A stretch of DNA of 64,000 nt. Origin: Escherichia phage EcWhh-1. Below are positions 7,355 to 23,529 of the stretch, piece by piece. The first letter of the stretch is position 1. Each line of letters begins with the position of its first letter. The stretch lies in the sequence record MH791409.1; one strand, 5' to 3'. Under the pieces are notes generated by a model, which made no database searches, was not told the DNA's origin, and saw nothing but the letters and a program-made list of their open reading frames with translations. Made by a program: the position numbers and the translations under genes.

Positions 7355-7537
7355 TTATGCTTTCAATTCTTCTAAATAATCAACCAAAGCCTGTTTTGAT
7401 TTAGCCAAATCTCGTTTACACCGTTCTATTCCAGAATATGAATAACCTTCACACATCTCAACCGCAAGGTCGTTAGAATCTCTTTCAATTTCAATAGCCA
7501 ATTTAAGAATTTTTGCACACTGTTCAGTAGTTAACAT
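7355..7537 (-). CDS. hypothetical small protein, 60 aa
   Basis: ORF in operon. Confidence 0.4.
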   Translation of the reverse strand: MLTTEQCAKILKLAIEIERDSNDLAVEMCEGYSYSGIERCKRDLAKSKQALVDYLEELKA

Positions 7538-7541
7538 AATA

Positions 7542-7778
7542 TCACCAGTATTTGTTGATAGTAGAAATTAATTCTTGGGCTTGGGCTGTATTCAGTTTAC
7601 ACCCACAACCCTTTAATGTGTCTTTAAGGAGCCACGGTTCCTTGAGCTCGTCCTTTTCCAGACGAATTCTGTATCCTCGATAATCGGCAAAGATACTTCG
7701 GTCGTCGAATATCTTAATCTCAAGGATACGACCATTGATTTCATATTCTAATGAAACCGTAGTACTTGTAAGTTTCAT
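7542..7778 (-). CDS. hypothetical small protein, 78 aa
   Basis: ORF in operon. Confidence 0.45.
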   Translation of the reverse strand: MKLTSTTVSLEYEINGRILEIKIFDDRSIFADYRGYRIRLEKDELKEPWLLKDTLKGCGCKLNTAQAQELISTINKYW

Positions 7779-8875: not shown

Positions 8876-9154
8876 TTATAGCTTTTTAAGCTTACGACAA
8901 TAAGAATAGAACACGTCGTTAAAATTATATTCAACCCAATTCCTCTGTATAGGCGAGGTAATGGAAAGCATATAATGCGCTTTAATTAAATCCATCCCAT
9001 TTTTATTAGGACACTCTTTATTATTAGCATTATACGTCGCTGCTACAACCTCTATCTCTCTTTTGTAAGCCACATCATCCATGATAGGCGAAAGAACAAT
9101 ATAAGAAATAGCCACAGCGAACGCTAGAATTAAAATCTTTGAATTTAGGTCCAT
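8876..9154 (-). CDS. hypothetical protein with N-terminal hydrophobic segment
   Basis: ORF between rI and tk. Confidence 0.5.
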   Translation of the reverse strand: MDLNSKILILAFAVAISYIVLSPIMDDVAYKREIEVVAATYNANNKECPNKNGMDLIKAHYMLSITSPIQRNWVEYNFNDVFYSYCRKLKKL

Positions 9155-9161
9155 AGTACCC

Positions 9162-9734
9162 TCAACTCGTTATTTCTATCCAGTGCTTCCTGCACAATGA
9201 CACGTAAGAATCGTTGCCACCTATAGAAACTTGGGCTCCGTCCTTAATTGCGATACCATCTTGGATACGAGCCGTCATAGTAGCTTTACGGCCGCAATGG
9301 CACACACCTTTGTACTCAACGAGTTTATCTGCCGTAGCGAGTAATTCAGCAGAGCCAGGAAACAGTTTACCCTGAAAATCAGTTCTTAGTCCATAGCACA
9401 TAACTGGAACATTATAATTGTCTACTATCTTTGCCAGTTGTTTTATCTGTACAGGTTCTAAGAATTGTGCTTCATCCACAAACACACAGTGGATATCTTT
9501 TTGAGATTCAGCCCAACGATAGAACTCGTATAGGTCCATATCCGGAGTCACTGCATTAGCCTCTTGGCTAATCCCTATACGAGATGAAATGCTATGGCTT
9601 GATTCTCTATTGTCTATCGCAGGCTTTAAAAGGAGTACGCCCATACCACGTTCTTTGTAGTTATGAGCGGCTGTTAGCAATGAAGCGGTCTTCCCGGAAT
9701 TCATTGCTGCGTAGTGAAAATAAAGTTGGGCCAT
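9162..9734 (-). CDS. tk: thymidine kinase
   Basis: P-loop AMNSGKT, C-terminal Cys cluster typical of TK; position matches T4 tk. Confidence 0.9.
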   Translation of the reverse strand: MAQLYFHYAAMNSGKTASLLTAAHNYKERGMGVLLLKPAIDNRESSHSISSRIGISQEANAVTPDMDLYEFYRWAESQKDIHCVFVDEAQFLEPVQIKQLAKIVDNYNVPVMCYGLRTDFQGKLFPGSAELLATADKLVEYKGVCHCGRKATMTARIQDGIAIKDGAQVSIGGNDSYVSLCRKHWIEITS

Positions 9735-9743
9735 ATTACCTTC

Positions 9744-9950
9744 TTAAAGACTATTTACATAAGCTATTAATTCATTTTCTTTCTCATCAAATCGATTGGC
9801 AAATTCTTCCTGGTGTTCGGCATCTATAGGGCCATATTCATCATAAAAAGAATTTGCTTCTGCATGCTCATCCAAAAGCTCATGGATAAGCTCAAATAAT
9901 TTATCTTTCTGTTCTTTACTCAGACTCATAACCATTGCACCTTTAAGCAA
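9744..9950 (-). CDS. hypothetical small acidic protein
   Basis: ORF in operon. Confidence 0.45.
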   Translation of the reverse strand: MLKGAMVMSLSKEQKDKLFELIHELLDEHAEANSFYDEYGPIDAEHQEEFANRFDEKENELIAYVNSL

Positions 9951-10138
9951 TATTCTTCTACATGATGTTTACGTTTATTTTTATCTATAAAAGTATATTC
10001 AACGTATTCACCGATATACCATTTATCGGTGTTGTGTTGACTTTTTATAGGGCATTTAGTTACTCGGGTTTCAGTCCAACGTCGAATAATTTCCGCTTTG
10101 TTTTTAGGGTCAAACGGATGTGGGTAATGGGCTTTCAT
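9926..10138 (-). CDS. hypothetical small protein
   Basis: ORF in operon. Confidence 0.45.
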   Translation of the reverse strand: MKAHYPHPFDPKNKAEIIRRWTETRVTKCPIKSQHNTDKWYIGEYVEYTFIDKNKRKHHVEEYCLKVQWL

Positions 10139-15405: not shown

Positions 15406-15855
15406 TCAAAAGAGCGAATCTAAAACCTTAAACATCGACGGACCCATGACATATTCCCATTGAGGACGTTTAATCAAGGCGAACGCATCGAATTCAGGAA
15501 CCGTGCGACCATCAGGGAACGTATGGTAAGCGGTACATTTGCAATCCTTGAACTGCTCGTGTTCCACAGGCACAGTATATAAGAACAGATGTAGATTCTT
15601 ATTGCTTGAATATTTGAACTCACCTAGGTCTTTCAGGAACGCAGGATCGTATGCTGTGAATCCGATCTCTTCTTCGGTTTCACGCATTGCCGCTTGAATA
15701 GGCTCTTCGCCCGGTTCGACATGGCCTTTAGGAATGTCCCATTTATGACGCATGTTCTCTGGATTACGAGAGCCTGTTACACGACCCATAACTAGTTCTT
15801 TATCAACGGTCATGAATAAAATACCGGCAGATAATTCTTTCGCTTTCTTACTCAT
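15406..15855 (-). CDS. nudE: Nudix hydrolase
   Basis: Nudix box GHVEPGEEPIQAAMRETEEEIGF; table ORF extends to 15930, ATG at ~15855 fits T4 NudE length. Confidence 0.8.
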   Translation of the reverse strand: MSKKAKELSAGILFMTVDKELVMGRVTGSRNPENMRHKWDIPKGHVEPGEEPIQAAMRETEEEIGFTAYDPAFLKDLGEFKYSSNKNLHLFLYTVPVEHEQFKDCKCTAYHTFPDGRTVPEFDAFALIKRPQWEYVMGPSMFKVLDSLF

Positions 15856-16084
15856 CGTCTCGTTCCCATGATTGTTTAAAGATATCTCGTATAATAATTT
15901 CAACACATGTTTCTGTTGACGGACTTTCACTATCAGATATTTGGACCATATAATCAGAAATAGGTCGGAACATATCCAAGTCGCTTTCTAAATCTTCTTT
16001 GATTTTCTCTTCTGATGTTCCGGTGTCATAGGAATACAGATAAGAATCACATGACTCGGATTTAATATAAATTGCAATACTCAT
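15848..16084 (-). CDS. hypothetical small acidic protein
   Basis: ORF in operon. Confidence 0.4.
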   Translation of the reverse strand: MSIAIYIKSESCDSYLYSYDTGTSEEKIKEDLESDLDMFRPISDYMVQISDSESPSTETCVEIIIRDIFKQSWERDDE

Positions 16085-16668
16085 TTACGGCATTCCTCAA
16101 TAAAGGAGTTCAATGTATTTTTCTTGGTGTTATCATCATATACCTTTTTAACTTTAGAAATACGAAAAGGTACTTCGATAACCGAGGTCCATAAAAATGA
16201 CGCAATAAGACCTGAGATAGCCGCAGACATCGCTGAAGCAAATACACAAATAGGCAGGTCATTATCTGTTTTCAGGAAAAACCAAAGGAGTGGAAAAAAT
16301 AATATTCCCATCCAAACATAGAACCTAGAACTCACTAATTTGTCATATTCGTCACTCCATGCACGAAAGCCGTATTTTTTGCTATAACAAATCAATGGGT
16401 CGGGTGTCTGTTCTTTGAGTGGTTCTGGTTGCCAACCGTTTACGATATAGCCCATTTTATATTCCTCAATTAAAAGCCGTTTCATTTCAGCAGTACAACC
16501 GGACCAATCTATCGTACTAGCTGGAATTCCTTCATCGCCATCATCAATATTTCGCCAAGACTTTTTAATAACCATATTCTCACCACTTGGGATAATAATT
16601 CCAGCATTTTCCGACCGACGGATGAAGTTTGCATCAATACCCATACACCCAGGTTCATAAAGGGCCAT
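16081..16668 (-). CDS. membrane protein with C-terminal LNSFIEECRK tail
   Basis: Two hydrophobic helices; C-terminal motif shared with 20925..21314 and 21265..21807. Confidence 0.5.
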   Translation of the reverse strand: MALYEPGCMGIDANFIRRSENAGIIIPSGENMVIKKSWRNIDDGDEGIPASTIDWSGCTAEMKRLLIEEYKMGYIVNGWQPEPLKEQTPDPLICYSKKYGFRAWSDEYDKLVSSRFYVWMGILFFPLLWFFLKTDNDLPICVFASAMSAAISGLIASFLWTSVIEVPFRISKVKKVYDDNTKKNTLNSFIEECRK

Positions 16669-17354
16669 TACCAGCCCTCCATAGGAAATTCCAGATAAAC
16701 TTGAGCATTAACACGGATTTCATTAGTAATCTTTTTAACACGGTCGGTATTACGAGAGACACGACCAAACCAGCGCCAACCGTTACTTACTGCACGAGAA
16801 CCTGTATGCCATGTCTGCCAATCAAACTGGAGTAACGTGCGGTCAGGGGCATCCCACTTGGTTAATTCATTAGACTCAATTTTTTCCAGAACTTCTTTAT
16901 GCCACTGGCGATAGATAAGTTCGCCTTCAGGAATCTGGCTAAATTGTGCAGTTCCGGTTGCAAAATAAGTAGGACACACATCAGCGTTAACAAGACCGAG
17001 AATATGTTCAGAATGGTAACGAGGATTATCATAATCAGGTTGCCCTGCGGTAATAAAGTGCTGGCCAACCGGAATATCCGGACGCGGTACATCATCATGA
17101 TGATAACCTGGGATAGCAGGGTACCAACCAGGCATCAGCATATGAACACGAGAATCAAATACAACCTGGTCGGTGTTCCAATCATCTGGTAGGTTCATGA
17201 TGAAGCTGCGGGTAATAGGTCCGCCATTATCAAAAGCGAAGGCTAACGAGCTGTTGAAGAACATAGGTTCGTTTTTGATTTTATCATTAGAAATTTTACC
17301 AGCGAAACCGCCTACTGCACGAGCTTTAGAATTAAAAGTTTTTGGACCGTTCAT
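16668..17354 (-). CDS. hypothetical protein, 228 aa
   Basis: ORF in operon; His/Asp-rich region, function not assignable. Confidence 0.5.
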   Translation of the reverse strand: MNGPKTFNSKARAVGGFAGKISNDKIKNEPMFFNSSLAFAFDNGGPITRSFIMNLPDDWNTDQVVFDSRVHMLMPGWYPAIPGYHHDDVPRPDIPVGQHFITAGQPDYDNPRYHSEHILGLVNADVCPTYFATGTAQFSQIPEGELIYRQWHKEVLEKIESNELTKWDAPDRTLLQFDWQTWHTGSRAVSNGWRWFGRVSRNTDRVKKITNEIRVNAQVYLEFPMEGW

Positions 17355-17368
17355 AATATTTTCCTCAC

Positions 17369-17581
17369 TTACTTTTTGTTGAAAAAGTACATTTTACCTT
17401 TAGGGGACAAGGATACACGAAGTGCATTACCAATACCAACTGAACATTTAACCAGGTCAGCAGATTTCAATTCACCAAATGCTTGACGAAGGTCTCCATC
17501 ACGAGTGTTAACCATCAGGCATTTAGCACCAGCTGCACGAACTTCGTTTAACATGTTGATTGCTTGATTAGAAAGTTTCAT
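17369..17581 (-). CDS. hypothetical small protein (start at internal ATG with GGAG SD)
   Basis: Table ORF 17369..17659 would overlap the promoter element; ATGs at ~17593/17581 lie downstream of it. Confidence 0.45.
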   Translation of the reverse strand: MKLSNQAINMLNEVRAAGAKCLMVNTRDGDLRQAFGELKSADLVKCSVGIGNALRVSLSPKGKMYFFNKK

Positions 17582-17606
17582 TTTATTCTCCATTTCACTC
17601 TGTTGT

Positions 17607-17648
17607 TTTGATAGGTCTATAGTATCACACCTATAGACCTTGTAAACA
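17607..17648 (-). promoter_or_regulatory. early promoter element
   Basis: GATAGGTCTATAGTATCAC plus TGTAAACA. Confidence 0.55.
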
Positions 17649-17659
17649 ATTTTATGCAA

Positions 17660-18619
17660 TTATTTTTCGAAAGGACGAATTAAATGATGGTTATCTTGGA
17701 ATCGTTTGATGTAGTCACTTTCACCTAAAGTCTTGTACATATTAACCACAGCTTGGTAGTTTTCCCATGCATAAGTGCGGAACCAACCTGAAGTGATTGA
17801 GGTACACACTTTCTCAAGAGCCATATAGAAACTTAATGATGGTGAAATATTGAAGTCATTAGGAACCTGTGAACGTTCTAGTGCCAGGACACAAGTTTCT
17901 TCATATACACCAGCCAGTTTAATAGCTTCAGGCAAAGCCTCGAACTTCTCACGAGAGGTCATGACTTCAGAACCTTCCTTCATATAAAAGGTATATGCAG
18001 GGCGCCCTGCCAATGCCACTGCTTCATGGATAGAGTCGTGGTCTAGCGTATAAATGGTATCGTTAAAGAACGATGATTTGTTTACATCCAATTTAGGGTG
18101 CTTGTAGCTCAACGTTTCTTTTTGACGTTGCAGCATAATTTCCTGGAGTTCTTCGTTCAGGGTGATACCTTTATTACGAAGGTATTTGATGTGGGACATA
18201 GTTTTCAGGAAGAAAGGATTATTCTTCAGGAAACGATGAGAGGTTTTGATAGCCAGACAGATATCAGGCGTGGCCCAATAAAAGCCTGTCATACGGTCCT
18301 TTTTAATATGATTTTCAGCATATTTTAGGAGACGATAACTTGAGGTGAAATCTTCGTCTTGAAGCTCACCGGTGATTTCTCGTACGTTAGTCAGAGCACG
18401 AACGATATATGCTTCAAAATAGGTTTCTTTACCGTTGTACATGCATTTAAAAGCCTGGACATCAGGGTTATCCACAGGAACATGGGCGCCGAACATCCGA
18501 GCTTTAAAGTGGTTCCATGAGCCTTGGTCGGCAATGAAATCCCAATCAGAATTTTCGATATACTTACTTTCAATCAGACCAGCGTGGTGCAGTGCACGAG
18601 AACCAATAACTAACATCAT
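17660..18619 (-). CDS. hypothetical protein with possible nucleotidyltransferase-fold N-terminus
   Basis: VIGSRA...SDWDF resembles GS...DxD but spacing (17) is atypical. Confidence 0.45.
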   Translation of the reverse strand: MMLVIGSRALHHAGLIESKYIENSDWDFIADQGSWNHFKARMFGAHVPVDNPDVQAFKCMYNGKETYFEAYIVRALTNVREITGELQDEDFTSSYRLLKYAENHIKKDRMTGFYWATPDICLAIKTSHRFLKNNPFFLKTMSHIKYLRNKGITLNEELQEIMLQRQKETLSYKHPKLDVNKSSFFNDTIYTLDHDSIHEAVALAGRPAYTFYMKEGSEVMTSREKFEALPEAIKLAGVYEETCVLALERSQVPNDFNISPSLSFYMALEKVCTSITSGWFRTYAWENYQAVVNMYKTLGESDYIKRFQDNHHLIRPFEK

Positions 18620-18632
18620 AATATTTTCCTCA

Positions 18633-18800
18633 TTAGTAGAGACGAGTTACTTCATATTTACCTAGTTCAGATTTTTTTGCTTCAACACGCGTGGCAGCGA
18701 GATTAGCGGCCTCTAGTGAAGAAAATTGAAGCACTTGTGAAGTATTCTGCCTTACGCCACCTTGTGGGTGAGTAACAAAAACAATAAGAACATTATACAT
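18633..18800 (-). CDS. possible small ORF, 55 aa (below 60-aa table cutoff)
   Basis: ATG with GAGGAAA SD fills an otherwise unannotated 200-bp gap on the coding strand. Confidence 0.3.
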   Translation of the reverse strand: MYNVLIVFVTHPQGGVRQNTSQVLQFSSLEAANLAATRVEAKKSELGKYEVTRLY

Positions 18801-18821
18801 AATATTTTCCTCAGAGTAAAC

Positions 18822-19061
18822 TTAAATTTCGGCAACGTAAGTATTATGCAATTCCCACATATCATCGGAATTACTCTCAACGATAGGAATTATCTCATTA
18901 GAAATTTCTTCTGCATAAGGGTCATTGATACAGTGGGCATCTTCAAAACGAACACCGTAATCAGACTTCTTATAGGCAAAGCCATAAATCTTTTTAAACT
19001 TGGCACGAGTAATGCGTACCGGTTCATTAGACTTATCGGACATCGGAGCGTAATACCACAT
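18822..19061 (-). CDS. hypothetical small protein, 79 aa
   Basis: ATG with GAGGAGAA SD. Confidence 0.5.
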   Translation of the reverse strand: MWYYAPMSDKSNEPVRITRAKFKKIYGFAYKKSDYGVRFEDAHCINDPYAEEISNEIIPIVESNSDDMWELHNTYVAEI

Positions 19062-19077
19062 ATGTTCTCCTCATGTT

Positions 19078-19118
19078 TGTGTAGGGTAATAGTAACACGT
19101 ATTTTTAGAGTTGTACAT
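19078..19118 (-). promoter_or_regulatory. degenerate early promoter element
   Basis: GTAGGGTAATAGTAACAC plus TTGTACA resembles the recurrent element. Confidence 0.35.
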
Positions 19119-19455
19119 CACTTCTGCAATATTCTAAAAATAATTTATCGTTGTCTACCGTATCCCAACGACGCCAAGATGGATTCCAGACCAGAGCGTT
19201 GTCACCACAATCATTGAGCTTAAAATGGTCGTAGTACATAGCTATACGTCTAGTTTCGTCACCAGAGAACCCCAGTATAGGCTCACCATGGGTGTGATAC
19301 ATATGATGGTGCATTGAGAGGTCGCATTTGTAAAACATCTCACGTTTACCACGAACGAACAAGAAGGCTTGCCCATTCATATAGAATTCTTTGTCTGTTT
19401 TCAAAAGATATTTGAATACCGAATCTTTATGCATAAATCCTCCTACCACATCCAT
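19105..19455 (-). CDS. hypothetical protein with His-rich patch (HHHMYHTH)
   Basis: ORF in operon. Confidence 0.5.
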   Translation of the reverse strand: MDVVGGFMHKDSVFKYLLKTDKEFYMNGQAFLFVRGKREMFYKCDLSMHHHMYHTHGEPILGFSGDETRRIAMYYDHFKLNDCGDNALVWNPSWRRWDTVDNDKLFLEYCRSDVQL

Positions 19456-19464
19456 GTGGTTAAA

Positions 19465-19692
19465 TTATTTTCCTAACGAAACACGAGTAGGTTTTTTACC
19501 AAAATAGTCTTCGTAAGAACCATCTAAACGACCTGCTTTAGACCGACAATACGAATCATACTTTTTGTAATAAGTCATCTCAGTATTATAACGTGGGTGT
19601 CTATCGGCCATAATAATACTTAGTGGCCAACCTTTGGCATAATCGCGAAGACCGTTTATTTTACGAATGTATCGTTTTTTCAATTTTAGCAT
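19465..19692 (-). CDS. hypothetical small basic protein
   Basis: ORF in operon. Confidence 0.45.
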   Translation of the reverse strand: MLKLKKRYIRKINGLRDYAKGWPLSIIMADRHPRYNTEMTYYKKYDSYCRSKAGRLDGSYEDYFGKKPTRVSLGK

Positions 19693-19910
19693 GAGCTTGG
19701 GTACCAGATTTCACCATCGGCACGAGCAACGAAGGTGCGACCAGCTTCTTCACCATAACAAGAGCTATTCAGCCAATCTTCGAGACGAACTTCACCGTCA
19801 TAATCGTCGAGCTCAACACCAAAATCCTGAGCAGAAGCCATATCTTTTACTTTCTTATACAGTGCAGCCAGTTCAAGTGCCGCTTTTTCTAATTCATTAA
19901 TAGTAGTCAT
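19686..19910 (-). CDS. small protein, C-terminal W-x-P-S-S-C family member 5
   Basis: Ends EIWYPSSC-stop; ATG at 19910 with AAGGTGA SD (table ORF extends to 20039). Confidence 0.6.
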   Translation of the reverse strand: MTTINELEKAALELAALYKKVKDMASAQDFGVELDDYDGEVRLEDWLNSSCYGEEAGRTFVARADGEIWYPSSC

Positions 19911-19920
19911 TTTTATCACC

Positions 19921-20130
19921 TTAGCAAGACATAGAGGAGCTAAACCAGAAACCTTCACCTTCAGGAATACCGTAATCATCACGGACCCATTCGTAATCAT
20001 CATATTCCGGACTAGAAGCTGGAATATATTCTTCGCCACCAGCGTGGAAGTGCTGACCTGTTTCGTCAGCCACGGACTGGCCTTTACGTACTAATTCACG
20101 GATTTGTTTTTCAATTTCATCAATAGTCAT
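19921..20130 (-). CDS. small protein, C-terminal W-x-S-S-S-x-x-C family member 4
   Basis: Ends GFWFSSSMSC-stop. Confidence 0.6.
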   Translation of the reverse strand: MTIDEIEKQIRELVRKGQSVADETGQHFHAGGEEYIPASSPEYDDYEWVRDDYGIPEGEGFWFSSSMSC

Positions 20131-20139
20131 TTTATTTCC

Positions 20140-20337
20140 TTAGCATTCGTAAGAGGAGGACACCCAGGAGCCACCTGTAATTGTAATACAGCCATTGTAA
20201 ATCGTGATATGACGGTCCAGATGGTTTTCACCATCGATATAGATATCAGCTTCTTCGCGTTCTTCTTTACAAATCTGGATAACGTTTTCAATAGCTGCGG
20301 CTGCAGTACGGATTGCACAATCTAGTTCACGAGACAT
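20140..20337 (-). CDS. small protein, C-terminal W-x-S-S-S-x-x-C family member 3
   Basis: Ends GGSWVSSSYEC-stop. Confidence 0.6.
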   Translation of the reverse strand: MSRELDCAIRTAAAAIENVIQICKEEREEADIYIDGENHLDRHITIYNGCITITGGSWVSSSYEC

Positions 20338-20346
20338 AATAATTCC

Positions 20347-20628
20347 TTAACATTCAGAAGAAGAGGACACCCAACCACCATTTTCTAGGCTGGTAGTGTA
20401 ATCATGTTGGTTTACAATAGCGTACTGAGCTTCACCGTATTCTTCCCAGTGGGCAAGGTCGGCTTTCAGGGCGCCAGGAGAATAATAGTCACCGCCCATA
20501 CCGCGAGCAGGGTATATATTAAAATGAGTCTCATATTTGTTAGCAATTTCCTCAGCACGTCGAATAGCTTTATGGATATCATTTACTGCTTTGGCCAGCT
20601 CTTTATTTTTACGGTAATCATTCATCAT
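20347..20628 (-). CDS. small protein, C-terminal W-x-S-S-S-x-x-C family member 2
   Basis: Ends NGGWVSSSSEC-stop. Confidence 0.6.
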   Translation of the reverse strand: MMNDYRKNKELAKAVNDIHKAIRRAEEIANKYETHFNIYPARGMGGDYYSPGALKADLAHWEEYGEAQYAIVNQHDYTTSLENGGWVSSSSEC

Positions 20629-20637
20629 AGTGTTTCC

Positions 20638-20928
20638 TTAGCACATTGCTGAAGAGGAGACCCAAGCACCAACTGTAACGACACCATTTTCAACTTCACC
20701 GCCGTTGTTTTCAATTTCATCTTTAAACCACTGGGAGCATTCATAACCGACAGGATAATATGTACGGCCTGAACCATAATCACCGGTGCCGAATTGGATA
20801 CCATACTTATCGGCAATAGCTTCGCATTCATGTTCGATGGCATCTACTTTATTCAGAAGAGCATAGATAGCCTTTTCTGCAGATTTCTCGTCATTGTGTT
20901 CTGGGATTTCAATTTCAATTTTATTCAT
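20638..20928 (-). CDS. small protein, C-terminal W-x-S-S-S-x-x-C family member 1
   Basis: Ends VGAWVSSSAMC-stop; start ATG overlaps upstream stop (ATGA). Confidence 0.6.
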   Translation of the reverse strand: MNKIEIEIPEHNDEKSAEKAIYALLNKVDAIEHECEAIADKYGIQFGTGDYGSGRTYYPVGYECSQWFKDEIENNGGEVENGVVTVGAWVSSSAMC

Positions 20929-21314
20929 GATTTACATTCCTTAATAAAGGTTTCAAGGTCATTACGTTTAGTTTGTTTTACATACTCATTATAATTAGCC
21001 ATCTCTAAAGCATATCTCTTACGGATGGGAGCATTCAAAGCATTTGTATGGCAAATATCATACACGAGAGGGATAAAATAGGCCACAACTGCTGGAGCGA
21101 TTATCATATAGAAACCCATCTCAATAGGTGTGACTCCTTCGATTACAGCCATAACCACGGTCATTACCAGGCCAATTAGGCCACCAAGCATGGCTGTAAC
21201 AATCCCTAATAATAAATTGGCACCAATATCATATTCAGCCAATTGATAAACATGCGATGAAAGACTAGGCCGTTCCATTTTGAACCTCTTTAGCGTATTC
21301 ACGGCATTCAGCAA
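20925..21314 (-). CDS. membrane protein with C-terminal LETFIKECKS tail
   Basis: Hydrophobic helices; shared C-terminal motif. Confidence 0.5.
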   Translation of the reverse strand: MLNAVNTLKRFKMERPSLSSHVYQLAEYDIGANLLLGIVTAMLGGLIGLVMTVVMAVIEGVTPIEMGFYMIIAPAVVAYFIPLVYDICHTNALNAPIRKRYALEMANYNEYVKQTKRNDLETFIKECKS

Positions 21315-21807
21315 TAAAGCGATTAAGCTTCCGTTGTTGTTTACGACTTTCTAATGTGTACTCAGCAGTTAAGATACCAAGCTCGGCTTTATCATAATTT
21401 TTAATATCAGTGTAAGATGGTCGACGGTCGACCATTCCAAATACATCACCATTTTCTAAAGCCACATAGCATACTAAATGGTAATCATCGTCTGCCATAT
21501 TAAGAAGCACACAATCATCGCTCTCATTTAAAGAATATACTGAATAACGTAGTCCAGCGAATTCCACTCGTTGAATAGTCAGATTTACGTCAATAATTTC
21601 CAAAGCATCTTCAAAAGAAAGGTCTTCAGCTAAAGCAAAAATAAAAGGTAATTTGGTAGTATCGCCACGGCTAGATGTTCTGCTTAAGAAATCGTTTGAA
21701 TAGCCTAGGTCTTGGCGAATTCTATAAAGAACTGAATTGGTTTCATGGGAAAGACCACTATTTTTAAACCAATCAATATTTGATATAAGGTTATCATATA
21801 AACTCAT
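21265..21807 (-). CDS. hypothetical protein with C-terminal LNRFIAECRE tail
   Basis: ORF in operon; shared C-terminal motif. Confidence 0.5.
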   Translation of the reverse strand: MSLYDNLISNIDWFKNSGLSHETNSVLYRIRQDLGYSNDFLSRTSSRGDTTKLPFIFALAEDLSFEDALEIIDVNLTIQRVEFAGLRYSVYSLNESDDCVLLNMADDDYHLVCYVALENGDVFGMVDRRPSYTDIKNYDKAELGILTAEYTLESRKQQRKLNRFIAECREYAKEVQNGTA

Positions 21808-21825
21808 AATATTCTCCTCTCCTCC

Positions 21826-21847
21826 AAATAGGGAGACCGAAGTCTCC
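21826..21847 (-). terminator. hairpin (GGGAGACcgaaGTCTCCC)
   Basis: Perfect stem with tetraloop. Confidence 0.45.
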
Positions 21848-21855
21848 CGGTAATA

Positions 21856-22449
21856 TTACTTAAGTGAATTAATGTAGTCTTCGATATCGGCTGAAGTCGT
21901 ATCCATTCCAACTTGTGGGCCTTTAAACGTTTCTACACGCAGCAGGGTATCTTCAATATCAATCTTAGTCAGTGCAGCGATTTCAACCACATCATCGGCA
22001 GTAGCAATACCAAGGGCAGCCATATTACGAGTTTCACGGATGTACTCGAGCTTAACAGCCAGTTCTTGACGAGAGTCATCAAGTTCCTTGACCTTCAGTT
22101 TAATTTCATTACGCATTTCGATATAATCGTCTGCTTTCTTACGAAGTTGATTAGCGGTACGACGATAAAGGAGGCCTAGTTTAGCATGCACCTGAACATC
22201 GGCGCCTTCTTTAATCAGTTTACGAATTTCACGTTCTTTAGAAGCAGCGAGCTGGTCTTTTTCATTTGCCAATGCACGAATGCGTTTTTCTTCATTCACC
22301 GACTTAACATGAGCAGTCTGAAGTTCGGTAATTTTATCAATCAGGGTAGAAGCAGCTTTAGTATACTGGTCTTCAATTGACAGGTTCTGAGTCATTGCGG
22401 TACCCAGTTTAGAACGGATGAACTCAACAATTTTCTTTAAAGTATTCAT
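21856..22449 (-). CDS. coiled-coil protein (speculatively PspA/IM30-like)
   Basis: Long amphipathic heptad-rich helices; ATG at 22449 with AAGGAA SD (table ORF extends to 22524). Confidence 0.5.
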
Positions 22450-22493
22450 AGTATTTCCTTCAGTTGGTTGGTATTTTGTAATCCATGAGGACA

Positions 22494-22523
22494 TTATACC
22501 CTGTCCTCTGAGGGTTGTAAACA
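22494..22523 (-). promoter_or_regulatory. early sigma70-type promoter (GTTTACA-N17-TATAAT)
   Basis: Near-consensus hexamers with palindromic spacer CCCTCAGAGGACAGGG. Confidence 0.55.
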
Positions 22524-22524
22524 A

Positions 22525-22788
22525 TTATTTCATATTATTGAAATAATCTTCCGCATCAAAATCATTATCGTGATAAACTTTGGTCGACAATTTAACGTAC
22601 CCTTCAGCAGCAAACATATTAACCACAACCTTTACGGTATACCACTGCCCATCGTCATTACCCATTACTGCGTAAGTTTCAAATATAGGATGGTCATCAC
22701 CTATAACTTTAATATCGTTTACTGTAGCACCAAATTCTTCAGGAACGCATTTCATAAAGAAATTAAACAATTCACCATAATTATCCAT
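22525..22788 (-). CDS. hypothetical small protein
   Basis: Table start 22803 is GTG; ATG at 22788 has AAGGAGAG SD. Confidence 0.5.
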   Translation of the reverse strand: MDNYGELFNFFMKCVPEEFGATVNDIKVIGDDHPIFETYAVMGNDDGQWYTVKVVVNMFAAEGYVKLSTKVYHDNDFDAEDYFNNMK

Positions 22789-22911: not shown

Positions 22912-23529
22912 TTATTTACGGGTCTTTTCGAACTGAGCGGCGTCACCTGCAAGGCGGCGGGCTTGACGAAGTTTGTTATCAATTTCTTCGTGCATAGGCT
23001 GGGTATACTTAAGGCCTTCAACCGTCAGGTAAAGACGATAGAGGTCCGGGGTATCTAGGTTGTTAATGTGTTGACCATTACGAAGAACATTGAATTCTCG
23101 AACAAGTTGTTTAGTTTCGGATTCGATTTCCGACACTAAAGAAGCCAGCTGGTTATATTTTTTAACAATAGTGCTGGTGTCGAACTTGATTTTAGGTTTA
23201 GGAGCTTCTTTTACAGGCTCTGCTTTAGGTGTAGGTTTCGGTGCTGCAACTTTGGTCTGAGCCGCGGGTTTAGAAACAGGAGCTTTAGCTGGTTTAGCAG
23301 GCTTAGTAGAGCCACCGGCTACGATATCTTTAAAAGCTTTGGAAGCTTTGTAATATTCTTTCTGGCTACTAGTATCAAAACCATACATATCATAAACGTT
23401 TTTAAAGAACTCGGTAGTGGTTTTAGTCCCTGAAATTTTATCATAAGCAGCTTGCCACATATCTTTAGTCATGCGCACGCTGGCTTCATTCAGAACGCTT
23501 TCGTTCAAAAATTCATTGTAAGTTTTCAT
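22912..23529 (-). CDS. internal protein-like with capsid targeting sequence (MKTYNEFLNE) and Pro/Ala/Lys-rich linker
   Basis: CTS at N-terminus; KPAKPAKAPVSKPAAQTKVAAPKP low-complexity linker; late promoter upstream. Confidence 0.7.
   Translation of the reverse strand: MKTYNEFLNESVLNEASVRMTKDMWQAAYDKISGTKTTTEFFKNVYDMYGFDTSSQKEYYKASKAFKDIVAGGSTKPAKPAKAPVSKPAAQTKVAAPKPTPKAEPVKEAPKPKIKFDTSTIVKKYNQLASLVSEIESETKQLVREFNVLRNGQHINNLDTPDLYRLYLTVEGLKYTQPMHEEIDNKLRQARRLAGDAAQFEKTRK

Follow-up and report, generated by a model that had tools for sequence, protein, structure and literature searches.

Small proteins encoded downstream of e.6 in T4-type phages share a short C-terminal tail, which we characterised in a 64,000-nucleotide stretch of DNA from Escherichia phage EcWhh-1 (sequence record MH791409.1; this whole stretch is referred to as the window). 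The tail has the core consensus Φ(L/I/F/V)-x-x-F(W)-I(V)-x-x-C-R(K). It is strictly C-terminal, recurs across Straboviridae, is selected as an amino acid sequence, is attached to unrelated protein bodies and is syntenic with e.6. In the window all of its carriers are on the minus strand, between e.6 and nudE/e. The reading we favour, with roughly even confidence, is that the tail is a cytoplasmic C-terminal helix for docking or assembly, with the e.6 protein as the leading candidate for its partner. The e.2-e.5 families are catalogued as hypothetical proteins (PHROG 2203, 2330 and 8788; Pfam PF26896 for e.2). A limited literature search, in which dotted gene names may index poorly, found no published function or shared-tail description for e.3-e.6, and on that search the shared tail of the e.2-e.5 products appears not to have been described before.

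The tail and its carriers in the window

Over positions 15800-21900 the window shares 93% identity with Escherichia phage JS98 (Dhakavirus, Straboviridae) and 90-94% with many relatives, and it is that of a JS98-like T4-type phage (Dhakavirus). The minus-strand gene order in JS98 is e.8, orf133, e.6, orf131, orf130, eleven small open reading frames (ORFs), e.2, orf118, nudE and e. An initial annotation, made from the sequence alone, had noted a tail L-x-x-F-I-x-E-C-(R/K) at the end of three ORFs. Their T4 counterparts are e.2 (for 16081-16668), e.3/e.4 (for 20925-21278) and the gene in the e.5 position (for 21265-21807). The T4 genes e.2, e.3, e.4 and e.5 (NP_049738-NP_049741) share the tail and agree with them in genomic block (e.6 to nudE to e), in order and in strand.

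That the three ORFs share a C-terminal tail was borne out, and chance is excluded. In a six-frame translation of the 64 kb, the patterns L..FI.EC and FI.EC[RK] occur exactly three times each, only at the three tails. Shuffling 94 putative proteins (21,062 aa) 2000 times gave an expectation of 0.0025 for L..FI.EC, and in none of the 2000 shuffles was even one match found within the last 25 residues. The core of the motif held up in homologues, whereas the Glu before the Cys did not: no more than 51 of 126 unique tails have it. With the core loosened to [FWY][IVL]..C[RK], a fourth carrier came to light that had been overlooked. This is a soluble protein of 116 aa (19105-19455; phrog_9796, E=2e-77), homologous to JS98 orf124, whose C-terminus reads LFLEYCRSDVQL, or in its other rendering DNDKLFLEYCRSDVQL; its tail, KLFLEYCRSDVQL (19108-19146), has Leu in place of Ile.

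The e.2-type gene (16081-16668), annotated e.2 in JS98, encodes a soluble N-terminal domain (DDGDEGI...DWSxC) followed by two transmembrane (TM) helices and the tail LNSFIEECRK (16084-16113). It belongs to the T4 e.2 family (PHROG 2203 / PF26896): residues 32-195 match phrog_2203 over profile positions 1-166 (E=1.3e-68), PF26896 is precomputed for 28 of 28 homologues, and the N-terminal domain of T4 e.2 is 33% identical over 103 aa. Translation could begin at 16575 (164 aa, the JS98 annotation) or at 16668 (195 aa). In most homologues the 31 extra codons of the longer form (16576-16668; MALYEPGCMG...) show protein-level conservation, with an in-frame deletion of three codons in one of them, and the stop codon of the preceding gene overlaps the ATG at 16668; the real product may be the 195-aa form. 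At the other end of the gene, GAGGA at 16094-16098 within the tail doubles as the Shine-Dalgarno sequence of the next gene, whose ATG (16082-16084) overlaps the e.2 stop codon.

The second carrier, orf130 (20925-21278), was given a TTG start at 21314 in the initial annotation; the ATG at 21278, which yields the 117-aa protein annotated in JS98, is most likely the true start. Several comparisons place orf130 in the T4 e.3/e.4 type. By hydropathy it has two TM helices, it matches phrog_2330 (E=2e-45), and residues 1-117 align by BLASTP with residues 1-116 of T4 e.3 (E=2e-9 in a 7-sequence database). A profile search of 1.84 billion proteins also reached a T4-e.3-like cluster (P0076, E=6e-6). Its tail, LETFIKECKS (20928-20957), likewise contains an element, AAGGA at 20938-20942, that doubles as the Shine-Dalgarno sequence of the next gene (ATG 20926-20928).

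The third carrier, orf131 (21265-21807; phrog_8788), is a soluble protein of 180 aa encoded in the e.5 position, as the first gene after e.6; the gene and the start of orf130 have 14 nt in common. Its tail, LNRFIAECREYAKEVQNGTA (21268-21327), consists of the motif and the 'REY.K' extension typical of e.5-type proteins ('CREY.K' is common to T4 e.5). The tail was correctly recognised in the initial annotation but its end point was not, since the ORF continues five residues beyond '...AKEV'. The Shine-Dalgarno sequence of orf130, AAAGAGG, lies in this extension, outside the motif.

The description of two of the three ORFs as membrane proteins proved right, both e.2 and orf130 having two hydrophobic helices followed by a Lys/Arg-rich tail. 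That the three are otherwise dissimilar is true of orf131, which has the tail alone in common with the other two. It does not apply to the C-terminal half of e.2 and orf130, which are remote homologues over the two-TM region and tail (BLASTP over 58 aa, E=2e-4, in the 7-sequence database); orf130 also gives a weak cross-hit to phrog_2203 (E=1.4e-3).

One further ORF outside the e block has a tail-like ending. A 97-aa ORF on the minus strand at 8876-9169 (phrog_6298), beside tk (9162-9743), ends in NFNDVFYSYCRKLKKL, with F-Φ-x-x-C-R-K and Tyr where Ile or Val would be expected. It is possibly a distant fifth carrier.

Recurrence across the Straboviridae

The tail was retained in every close homologue examined. 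All 27 homologues of orf131 keep RK(L/I)(N/D)RFIxECREYAK, in which x is A, T or K, with one FIADC variant. All 17 homologues of orf130 end in FIKECKS, including a divergent subgroup whose N-terminal and TM part is only about 54% identical, and all 28 homologues of e.2 end in LN(S/E/D)FI(E/K)ECRK, although one is only 38% identical overall. The search of related phages that the initial annotation had called for thus found the tail to recur in all three sets of homologues, in T4 and in distant Straboviridae.

In T4, the two-TM proteins e.3 and e.4 end in MKEFVIDCRKIK (longer form SMKEFVIDCRKIK) and MKFVKESRCKSQS (longer form IMKFVKESRCKSQS), respectively, the latter with a one-residue insertion before the Cys, and the soluble e.5 ends in LEKFVKECREYVKAITIPSK (longer form LLEKFVKECREYVKAITIPSK). 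The annotated T4 e.2 (102 aa) has the N-terminal domain and one TM helix only, and ends in a shifted frame. Its missing part is found unannotated in another frame just downstream (IEMPWRLRRQQKIFDEKKYAQNLNNFITECRKLK), this remnant ending in LNNFITECRKLK. In T4 NC_000866 the second TM helix and tail (NLNNFITECRKLK) persist in the original frame at 67490-67960, between e.2 and nudE. Comparison of reference T4 with a close relative (L017) revealed a -1/+1 indel pair, and T4 relatives have an intact e.2 of 162 aa; T4 e.2 may be a genuine pseudogene, or the indel pair may be an error of sequencing. The view that T4 e.2 is a short protein is thereby corrected. The e.2 N-terminal domain is fused in the window to an e.3-like module of two TM helices and tail, whereas reference T4 has a disrupted e.2 and a separate e.3. 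The window also has about 4.3 kb of genes between orf130 and e.2 that are not present in T4, and the body of orf131 has no BLAST-detectable similarity to T4 e.5.

For a wider survey, loci anchored on e.6 were collected, 44 in the main set (including 36 IMG/VR contigs) and three more distant ones added later. The tail was seen in Jiaodavirus, Winklervirus, Karamvirus and Ishigurovirus (Aeromonas phage 65, subfamily Emmerichvirinae), in Pseudotevenvirus (Miller, EC-W1), in Providencia phage PSTCR6 and in the 36 IMG/VR loci; the sampled carriers span at least eight Straboviridae lineages, including two subfamilies. Between two and six carriers lie downstream of e.6 in 41 of the 44 loci, which is every locus with downstream sequence, and each of the three later loci has one. 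The position of the motif is as consistent as its recurrence. On the gene strand 152 core matches fall no more than 24 residues from a C-terminus and one falls elsewhere (181,661 residues), whereas 25 matches on the opposite strand are scattered.

The bodies to which the tail is attached are diverse. At BLAST level they form 28 clusters, split about evenly between proteins with two TM helices and soluble ones, and no Pfam domain was found in 35 diverse carriers scanned. Nor did the three ORFs or their neighbours give a meaningful match in scans against Pfam, NCBIfam and PADLOC. The orf130 profile search found only seven clusters among the 1.84 billion representative proteins, all of T4-like-phage type and none leading to a cellular family, so that the family is restricted to phages of this group. 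No tblastn match to orf131 was found beyond Dhakavirus. When the e.5-position proteins were compared by hhalign with their tails removed, the T4 e.5 group matched the broad cross-genus group (P=92%, E=5e-7), the orf131 group matched the broad group weakly (P=52%, E=1.5e-4, 94 columns), and the orf131 and T4 e.5 groups did not match each other directly (P=0.3%). In a cross-genus alignment of 14 e.5-position sequences only four columns are invariant, three of which are the F, C and R of the tail.

Constraint on the peptide and on the DNA

The tail is conserved at the protein level, with free synonymous variation. Its Cys is encoded by TGC in 61 cases and TGT in 65, and its Phe by TTT (88) or TTC (33); codons of both families serve for the Arg (CGT 37, AGA 37, AGG 20, CGA 10, CGC 9), and 21 different codons occur at the Φ position, three residues before the Phe. 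The Leu codons of the window tails also differ (TTG, CTT and CTT). As codon usage is free at the invariant positions, selection must act on the peptide. With a relaxed pattern, Φ..[FW][IV]..X[RK] within the last 30 residues, X was Cys in 113 of 131 unique gene-strand matches and in none of the 22 control-strand matches. Val, Ile or Met takes its place in a few paralogues, which end in SLEFVKEVRRK, LDFIRGIRS, LSWIKEMK or LQFIREVRNAKTR. These substitutions fit a small hydrophobic residue on the helix face formed by Φ, F and C, with the Cys dispensable in some contexts.

A second, nucleotide constraint is superimposed on the short tails, those that end no more than three residues after Cys-Arg. 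The next ATG lies 4-16 nt beyond the Cys codon in 52 of these 56 tails, and GAGG, AGGA or AAGG is present in the two x codons in 27 of the 56, as against 9 of 70 longer tails; the two x codons double as the Shine-Dalgarno sequence of the overlapping downstream gene. This bears on the DNA similarity reported in the initial annotation, which is real for two of the three copies. The tails of e.2 and orf130 both match CATTCCTYAATAAAGG exactly (16091-16106 and 20935-20950; 15/16 identity between the copies), whereas the third site (21305-21320) has three mismatches to it, no better than chance (1.66 expected). In the two 16-mers the next ATG follows 8-9 nt after GAGGAA and AAGGAA, and their identity arises from dual coding for the Shine-Dalgarno sequence together with an AT-rich codon bias.

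Mosaicism is also evident at the tails. Between the window and two other Dhakaviruses (L007 and L011), the N-terminal domain and downstream flank of e.2 are 93-100% identical and a TM cassette of about 330 nt is only 23-63% identical; the tail has the same amino acids with two or three synonymous changes. For orf130 (window against L007 and L009) the TM cassette is 36-73% identical, and identity is 96-100% over roughly the final 90 nt, synonymous sites included. The 3' junctions of the cassettes thus fall at the tail and stop codon, or about 90 nt before the stop. In window coordinates the divergent TM alleles of L007, L009 and L011 map to 16240-16570 (e.2) and about 21020-21250 (orf130). The e.2 allele of L007 and L011 resembles the T4 type (...IEMPWRLRRQQ...), which hints at cassette exchange between genera.

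The suggestion of modular exchange of a 3' segment therefore finds partial support in these alignments: the mosaic junctions at the tails of Dhakaviruses speak for exchange of the e.2 and orf130 cassettes at or near the tail, while no tail DNA is conserved across genera. For this last reason the exchange looks like a by-product of tail conservation rather than its cause. Modular shuffling in the hyperplastic regions of T4-type phages is mediated by PeSL cassettes, which consist of an early promoter and a stem-loop (PMC2839356, PMC4122927). Like PeSLs, the tails would be short conserved elements at gene boundaries in such a region that coincide with mosaic junctions; unlike them, the tails are coding and are conserved as protein with synonymous variation, PeSLs being non-coding and conserved as DNA. 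We rejected the tail as a PeSL cassette, as the tail genes overlap their neighbours, no promoter with a stem-loop or terminator is found at the tails, and the codons vary. A promoter at the tail was likewise rejected, only one weak site (9/12) overlapping the tail of orf130.

Four explanations other than docking were weighed. A nucleotide signal for the downstream gene, either a translation-initiation region (Shine-Dalgarno, coupling) or some other RNA or DNA element, would account for the close ATGs and the Shine-Dalgarno-like x codons of the short tails, but the invariant F, I/V, C and R are not part of the Shine-Dalgarno sequence and their codons vary freely. Moreover, the third window copy and all e.5-type tails have the downstream Shine-Dalgarno sequence outside the motif, and the distance from motif to stop codon varies from 0 to 25 residues. 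Such a signal is a most improbable primary cause, and is largely refuted as one; it accounts for the bias at x-x and for the DNA identity of the two copies, not for the motif. Nascent-peptide or termination stalling was dropped in view of the same variable distance to the stop. An unlikely explanation, though less so than the nucleotide signal, is that the 3' segment is conserved as a homology patch, a linker for cassette swapping in a hyperplastic region. The divergent Dhakavirus TM cassettes between near-identical flanks, with 3' junctions at the tail or stop, and the T4-like e.2 allele are in its favour. Yet across genera the conservation is of amino acids, with no stable DNA patch beyond a few bases, and the divergent e.2 alleles differ at synonymous sites within the tail itself; the boundaries lack a PeSL-like promoter and stem-loop, and junctions beside any strongly conserved segment would be expected as a by-product.

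The carriers might instead be diverged paralogues of a single gene, with the tail as the last recognisable piece and no shared function. A relationship among the two-TM carriers (the C-terminal half of e.2, e.3, e.4 and orf130) can indeed be detected from end to end, the e.5-position proteins appear to belong to a single divergent family, and the genes are in tandem. A neutral remnant would not, however, stay nearly invariant while the bodies diverge beyond detection across subfamilies, and the soluble and two-TM carriers are without similarity outside the tail, so that we consider a relic of common descent quite unlikely. Somewhat less so, but still doubtful, is a C-terminal signal of another kind, such as a degron or turnover tag for early proteins, or Cys chemistry (a metal or cluster bridge, a disulfide, a modification). 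The strictly C-terminal location, the predominance of Cys in the relaxed matches with a nearly invariant Cys-Arg, and the invariance of F, C and R in the e.5 family all fit such a signal, as does a second family in the block that ends in a conserved Cys (G-W-x-S-S-S-x-x-C). Against it, the Cys is replaced by Val, Ile or Met in some paralogues whose tail is otherwise intact, a single Cys per chain offers little footing for redox or metal chemistry where the cytoplasm is reducing, and domain scans of the neighbours revealed no recognisable modifying enzyme. To our knowledge, the motif is also unlike the known C-terminal degrons of E. coli.

The Cys-ended family just mentioned is phrog_899, which the sequences define as a second family of the block with a C-terminal Cys. 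Five small tandem paralogues lie on the minus strand of the window (19686-20039, 19921-20130, 20140-20337, 20347-20628 and 20638-20928) and end in G-W-x-S-S-S-x-x-C or W-Y-P-S-S-C, the Cys being the very last residue. Of the 44 loci, 32 have between one and five ORFs with an ending of this type, and such endings also occur in a Providencia locus (L044); none lies on the opposite strand, and T4 has none.

A putative docking helix and the e.6 protein

The initial annotation had offered a shared C-terminal functional helix as one explanation of the tail. As far as sequence can tell this is well supported, by recurrence, by conservation of the amino acids and by helix prediction. In a helix the Φ, F and C of the tail fall on one face (i, i+3, i+7), and the tail would be a short amphipathic helix, Φ-x-x-[F/W]-[I/V]-x-x-C-[R/K], that acts as a protein-level C-terminal module. 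Lys and Arg are abundant in the stretch that joins the second TM helix to the tail, the two TM helices are linked by a short acidic loop, and signal peptides are missing from the soluble carriers; the positive-inside rule would accordingly place the tails in the cytoplasm. An AlphaFold2 (AF2) model of e.2 shows a TM hairpin whose second helix runs on through the tail (mean pLDDT 66.8, about 46-51 in the tail). The AF2 model of orf131 is unusable (pLDDT 39.4), with the last 26 residues helical. Low confidence in the tail is as expected of a segment that would fold with a partner. From these features we infer a helix that is exposed, cytoplasmic and bound to something, and its bound partner may be e.6.

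e.6 (21856-22449, minus strand; phrog_1203) encodes a conserved coiled-coil protein of 197 aa and is present in 1110 phage records. Wherever a sampled locus reaches beyond e.6 on the downstream side, the first gene after e.6 bears the tail. The same is true of Pseudotevenvirus, in which e.6 has no more than 29-32% identity and lies beside nrdD/nrdG, and the gene in the e.5 position is the sole carrier within 3-6 kb. In one nudE-anchored locus from a 177-kb Klebsiella phage neither e.6 nor a tail was found within 8 kb. The e.6 protein itself ends in a relaxed form of the motif, IEDYINSLK in the window (21859-21885), and Φ-x-x-Y-Φ-x-x-Φ-K is its C-terminus in all lineages (YINSLK, YIEALKA, YMAKFK). 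An early-type promoter-like site (TTTACA-17-TATAAT, 11/12; 22493-22521, minus strand) lies upstream of e.6; it is a consensus match only, and the promoter scan overall was close to shuffled controls (30 sites, against a mean of 23.2 and a standard deviation of 4.8). The arrangement suggests that e.6, orf131 and orf130 could be co-transcribed. No solved structure was matched below E=0.05 in searches with profiles of e.6, e.2 and the e.5 family. A PspA/IM30-like identity for e.6 was also considered and, having no sequence support, dropped.

Similar endings are not confined to e.6. They are seen at the termini of e.6 (21859-21885), e.8 (22528-22554) and two phrog_653 paralogues (7355-7567 and 9744-9968), among them LIAYVNSL. 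The C-termini of e.7 and e.8 are AFIDELDEE and YFNNMK, and T4 e.7 ends in AINAFIDELDEE. The endings of e.6, e.8 and phrog_653 could represent a broader C-terminal helix class, or plain common amphipathic endings, and extension of the motif to e.6, e.7 and e.8 is a lead only.

In the mechanism we propose, the tail would mark fast-evolving early accessory proteins (in T4, e.5, e.4, e.3 and intact e.2; in the window, orf131, orf130, the e.2 fusion and 19105-19455) and would serve them as a common handle for docking or assembly at the cytoplasmic face of the inner membrane. Through this handle the variable soluble proteins of e.5 type and the variable two-TM proteins of e.2/e.3/e.4 type would be tied to one conserved partner. 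The best candidate would be the coiled-coil e.6 protein encoded directly upstream, with tail-to-tail bundling or a conserved host protein as possible alternatives.

Several observations weigh against this proposal. The case for e.6 as partner draws on synteny and a loose C-terminal likeness, and the relaxed nine-residue motif that e.6 matches also ends one of some 90 unrelated putative genes of the window, where the same scan gave several near-misses besides. The joint absence of e.6 and tails was checked at a single locus, that of the Klebsiella phage, and the structure models are poor, as their pLDDT values indicate. The near-invariance of Cys-Arg, moreover, exceeds the needs of packing alone, and the Cys may have a chemical role.

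Docking through a short conserved peptide that otherwise unrelated proteins of the same genome carry at their very C-terminus has known counterparts. The sliding-clamp-binding tails of T4 gp43, gp55 and gp33, the beta-clamp motif QL[SD]LF and the C-terminal tip of single-stranded DNA-binding protein (SSB) are all hub-docking peptides of this kind. The tail would resemble them by analogy in its placement; it differs in its sequence pattern, in that half of its carriers are integral membrane proteins, and in that its docking role is putative. A superficial likeness also exists to the capsid targeting sequence of T4 internal proteins, an N-terminal MKTYQEFIAE after whose Glu the gp21 protease cuts, which similarly occurs on diverse proteins of the same variable region and has a comparable Φ-x-x-F-I-x-E. 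That signal, unlike the tail, is N-terminal, Glu-dependent and without Cys-Arg, and membrane proteins would not enter capsids. A role of the tail in capsid targeting or as a gp21 site was rejected, since 152 of 153 gene-strand matches are C-terminal and Glu precedes the Cys in only 51 of 126 tails. The window does encode a protein with the N-terminal pattern, MKTYNEFLNE, at 22912-23529 (minus strand, 205 aa), followed by Pro/Ala/Lys-rich low-complexity sequence. Among the other genes of the block is one for a 319-aa protein (17660-18619, minus strand) with Pfam domains DUF7277 (E=1e-26) and DUF7275 (E=6e-77); it is kept in the same block in Winklervirus and Karamvirus loci and is not found in T4.

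A bolder form of the proposal, which we offer as speculation and think improbable, is that e.6 and all of the tail proteins co-assemble through their C-terminal helices into a membrane-anchored complex, in which the Cys residues might come together at one site. Such a complex would give T4-like phages a plug-and-play platform for swapping variable TM cassettes and soluble effectors while the connector stays constant, for instance in superinfection exclusion or counter-defence.

We found no functional study of the T4 e.2-e.8 block, which has been unexplained since the genome was annotated. The tail turns a set of unrelated orphan proteins into a single testable system, in which a tail peptide of 10-15 residues (for example KKNTLNSFIEECRK) could be used as bait and F, C and R are the obvious positions for point mutants. 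It also provides a simple sequence signature for the annotation of e-block genes. Finally, the presence of hypervariable TM cassettes beside a constant tail suggests that the proteins of this block may form an arms-race interface.

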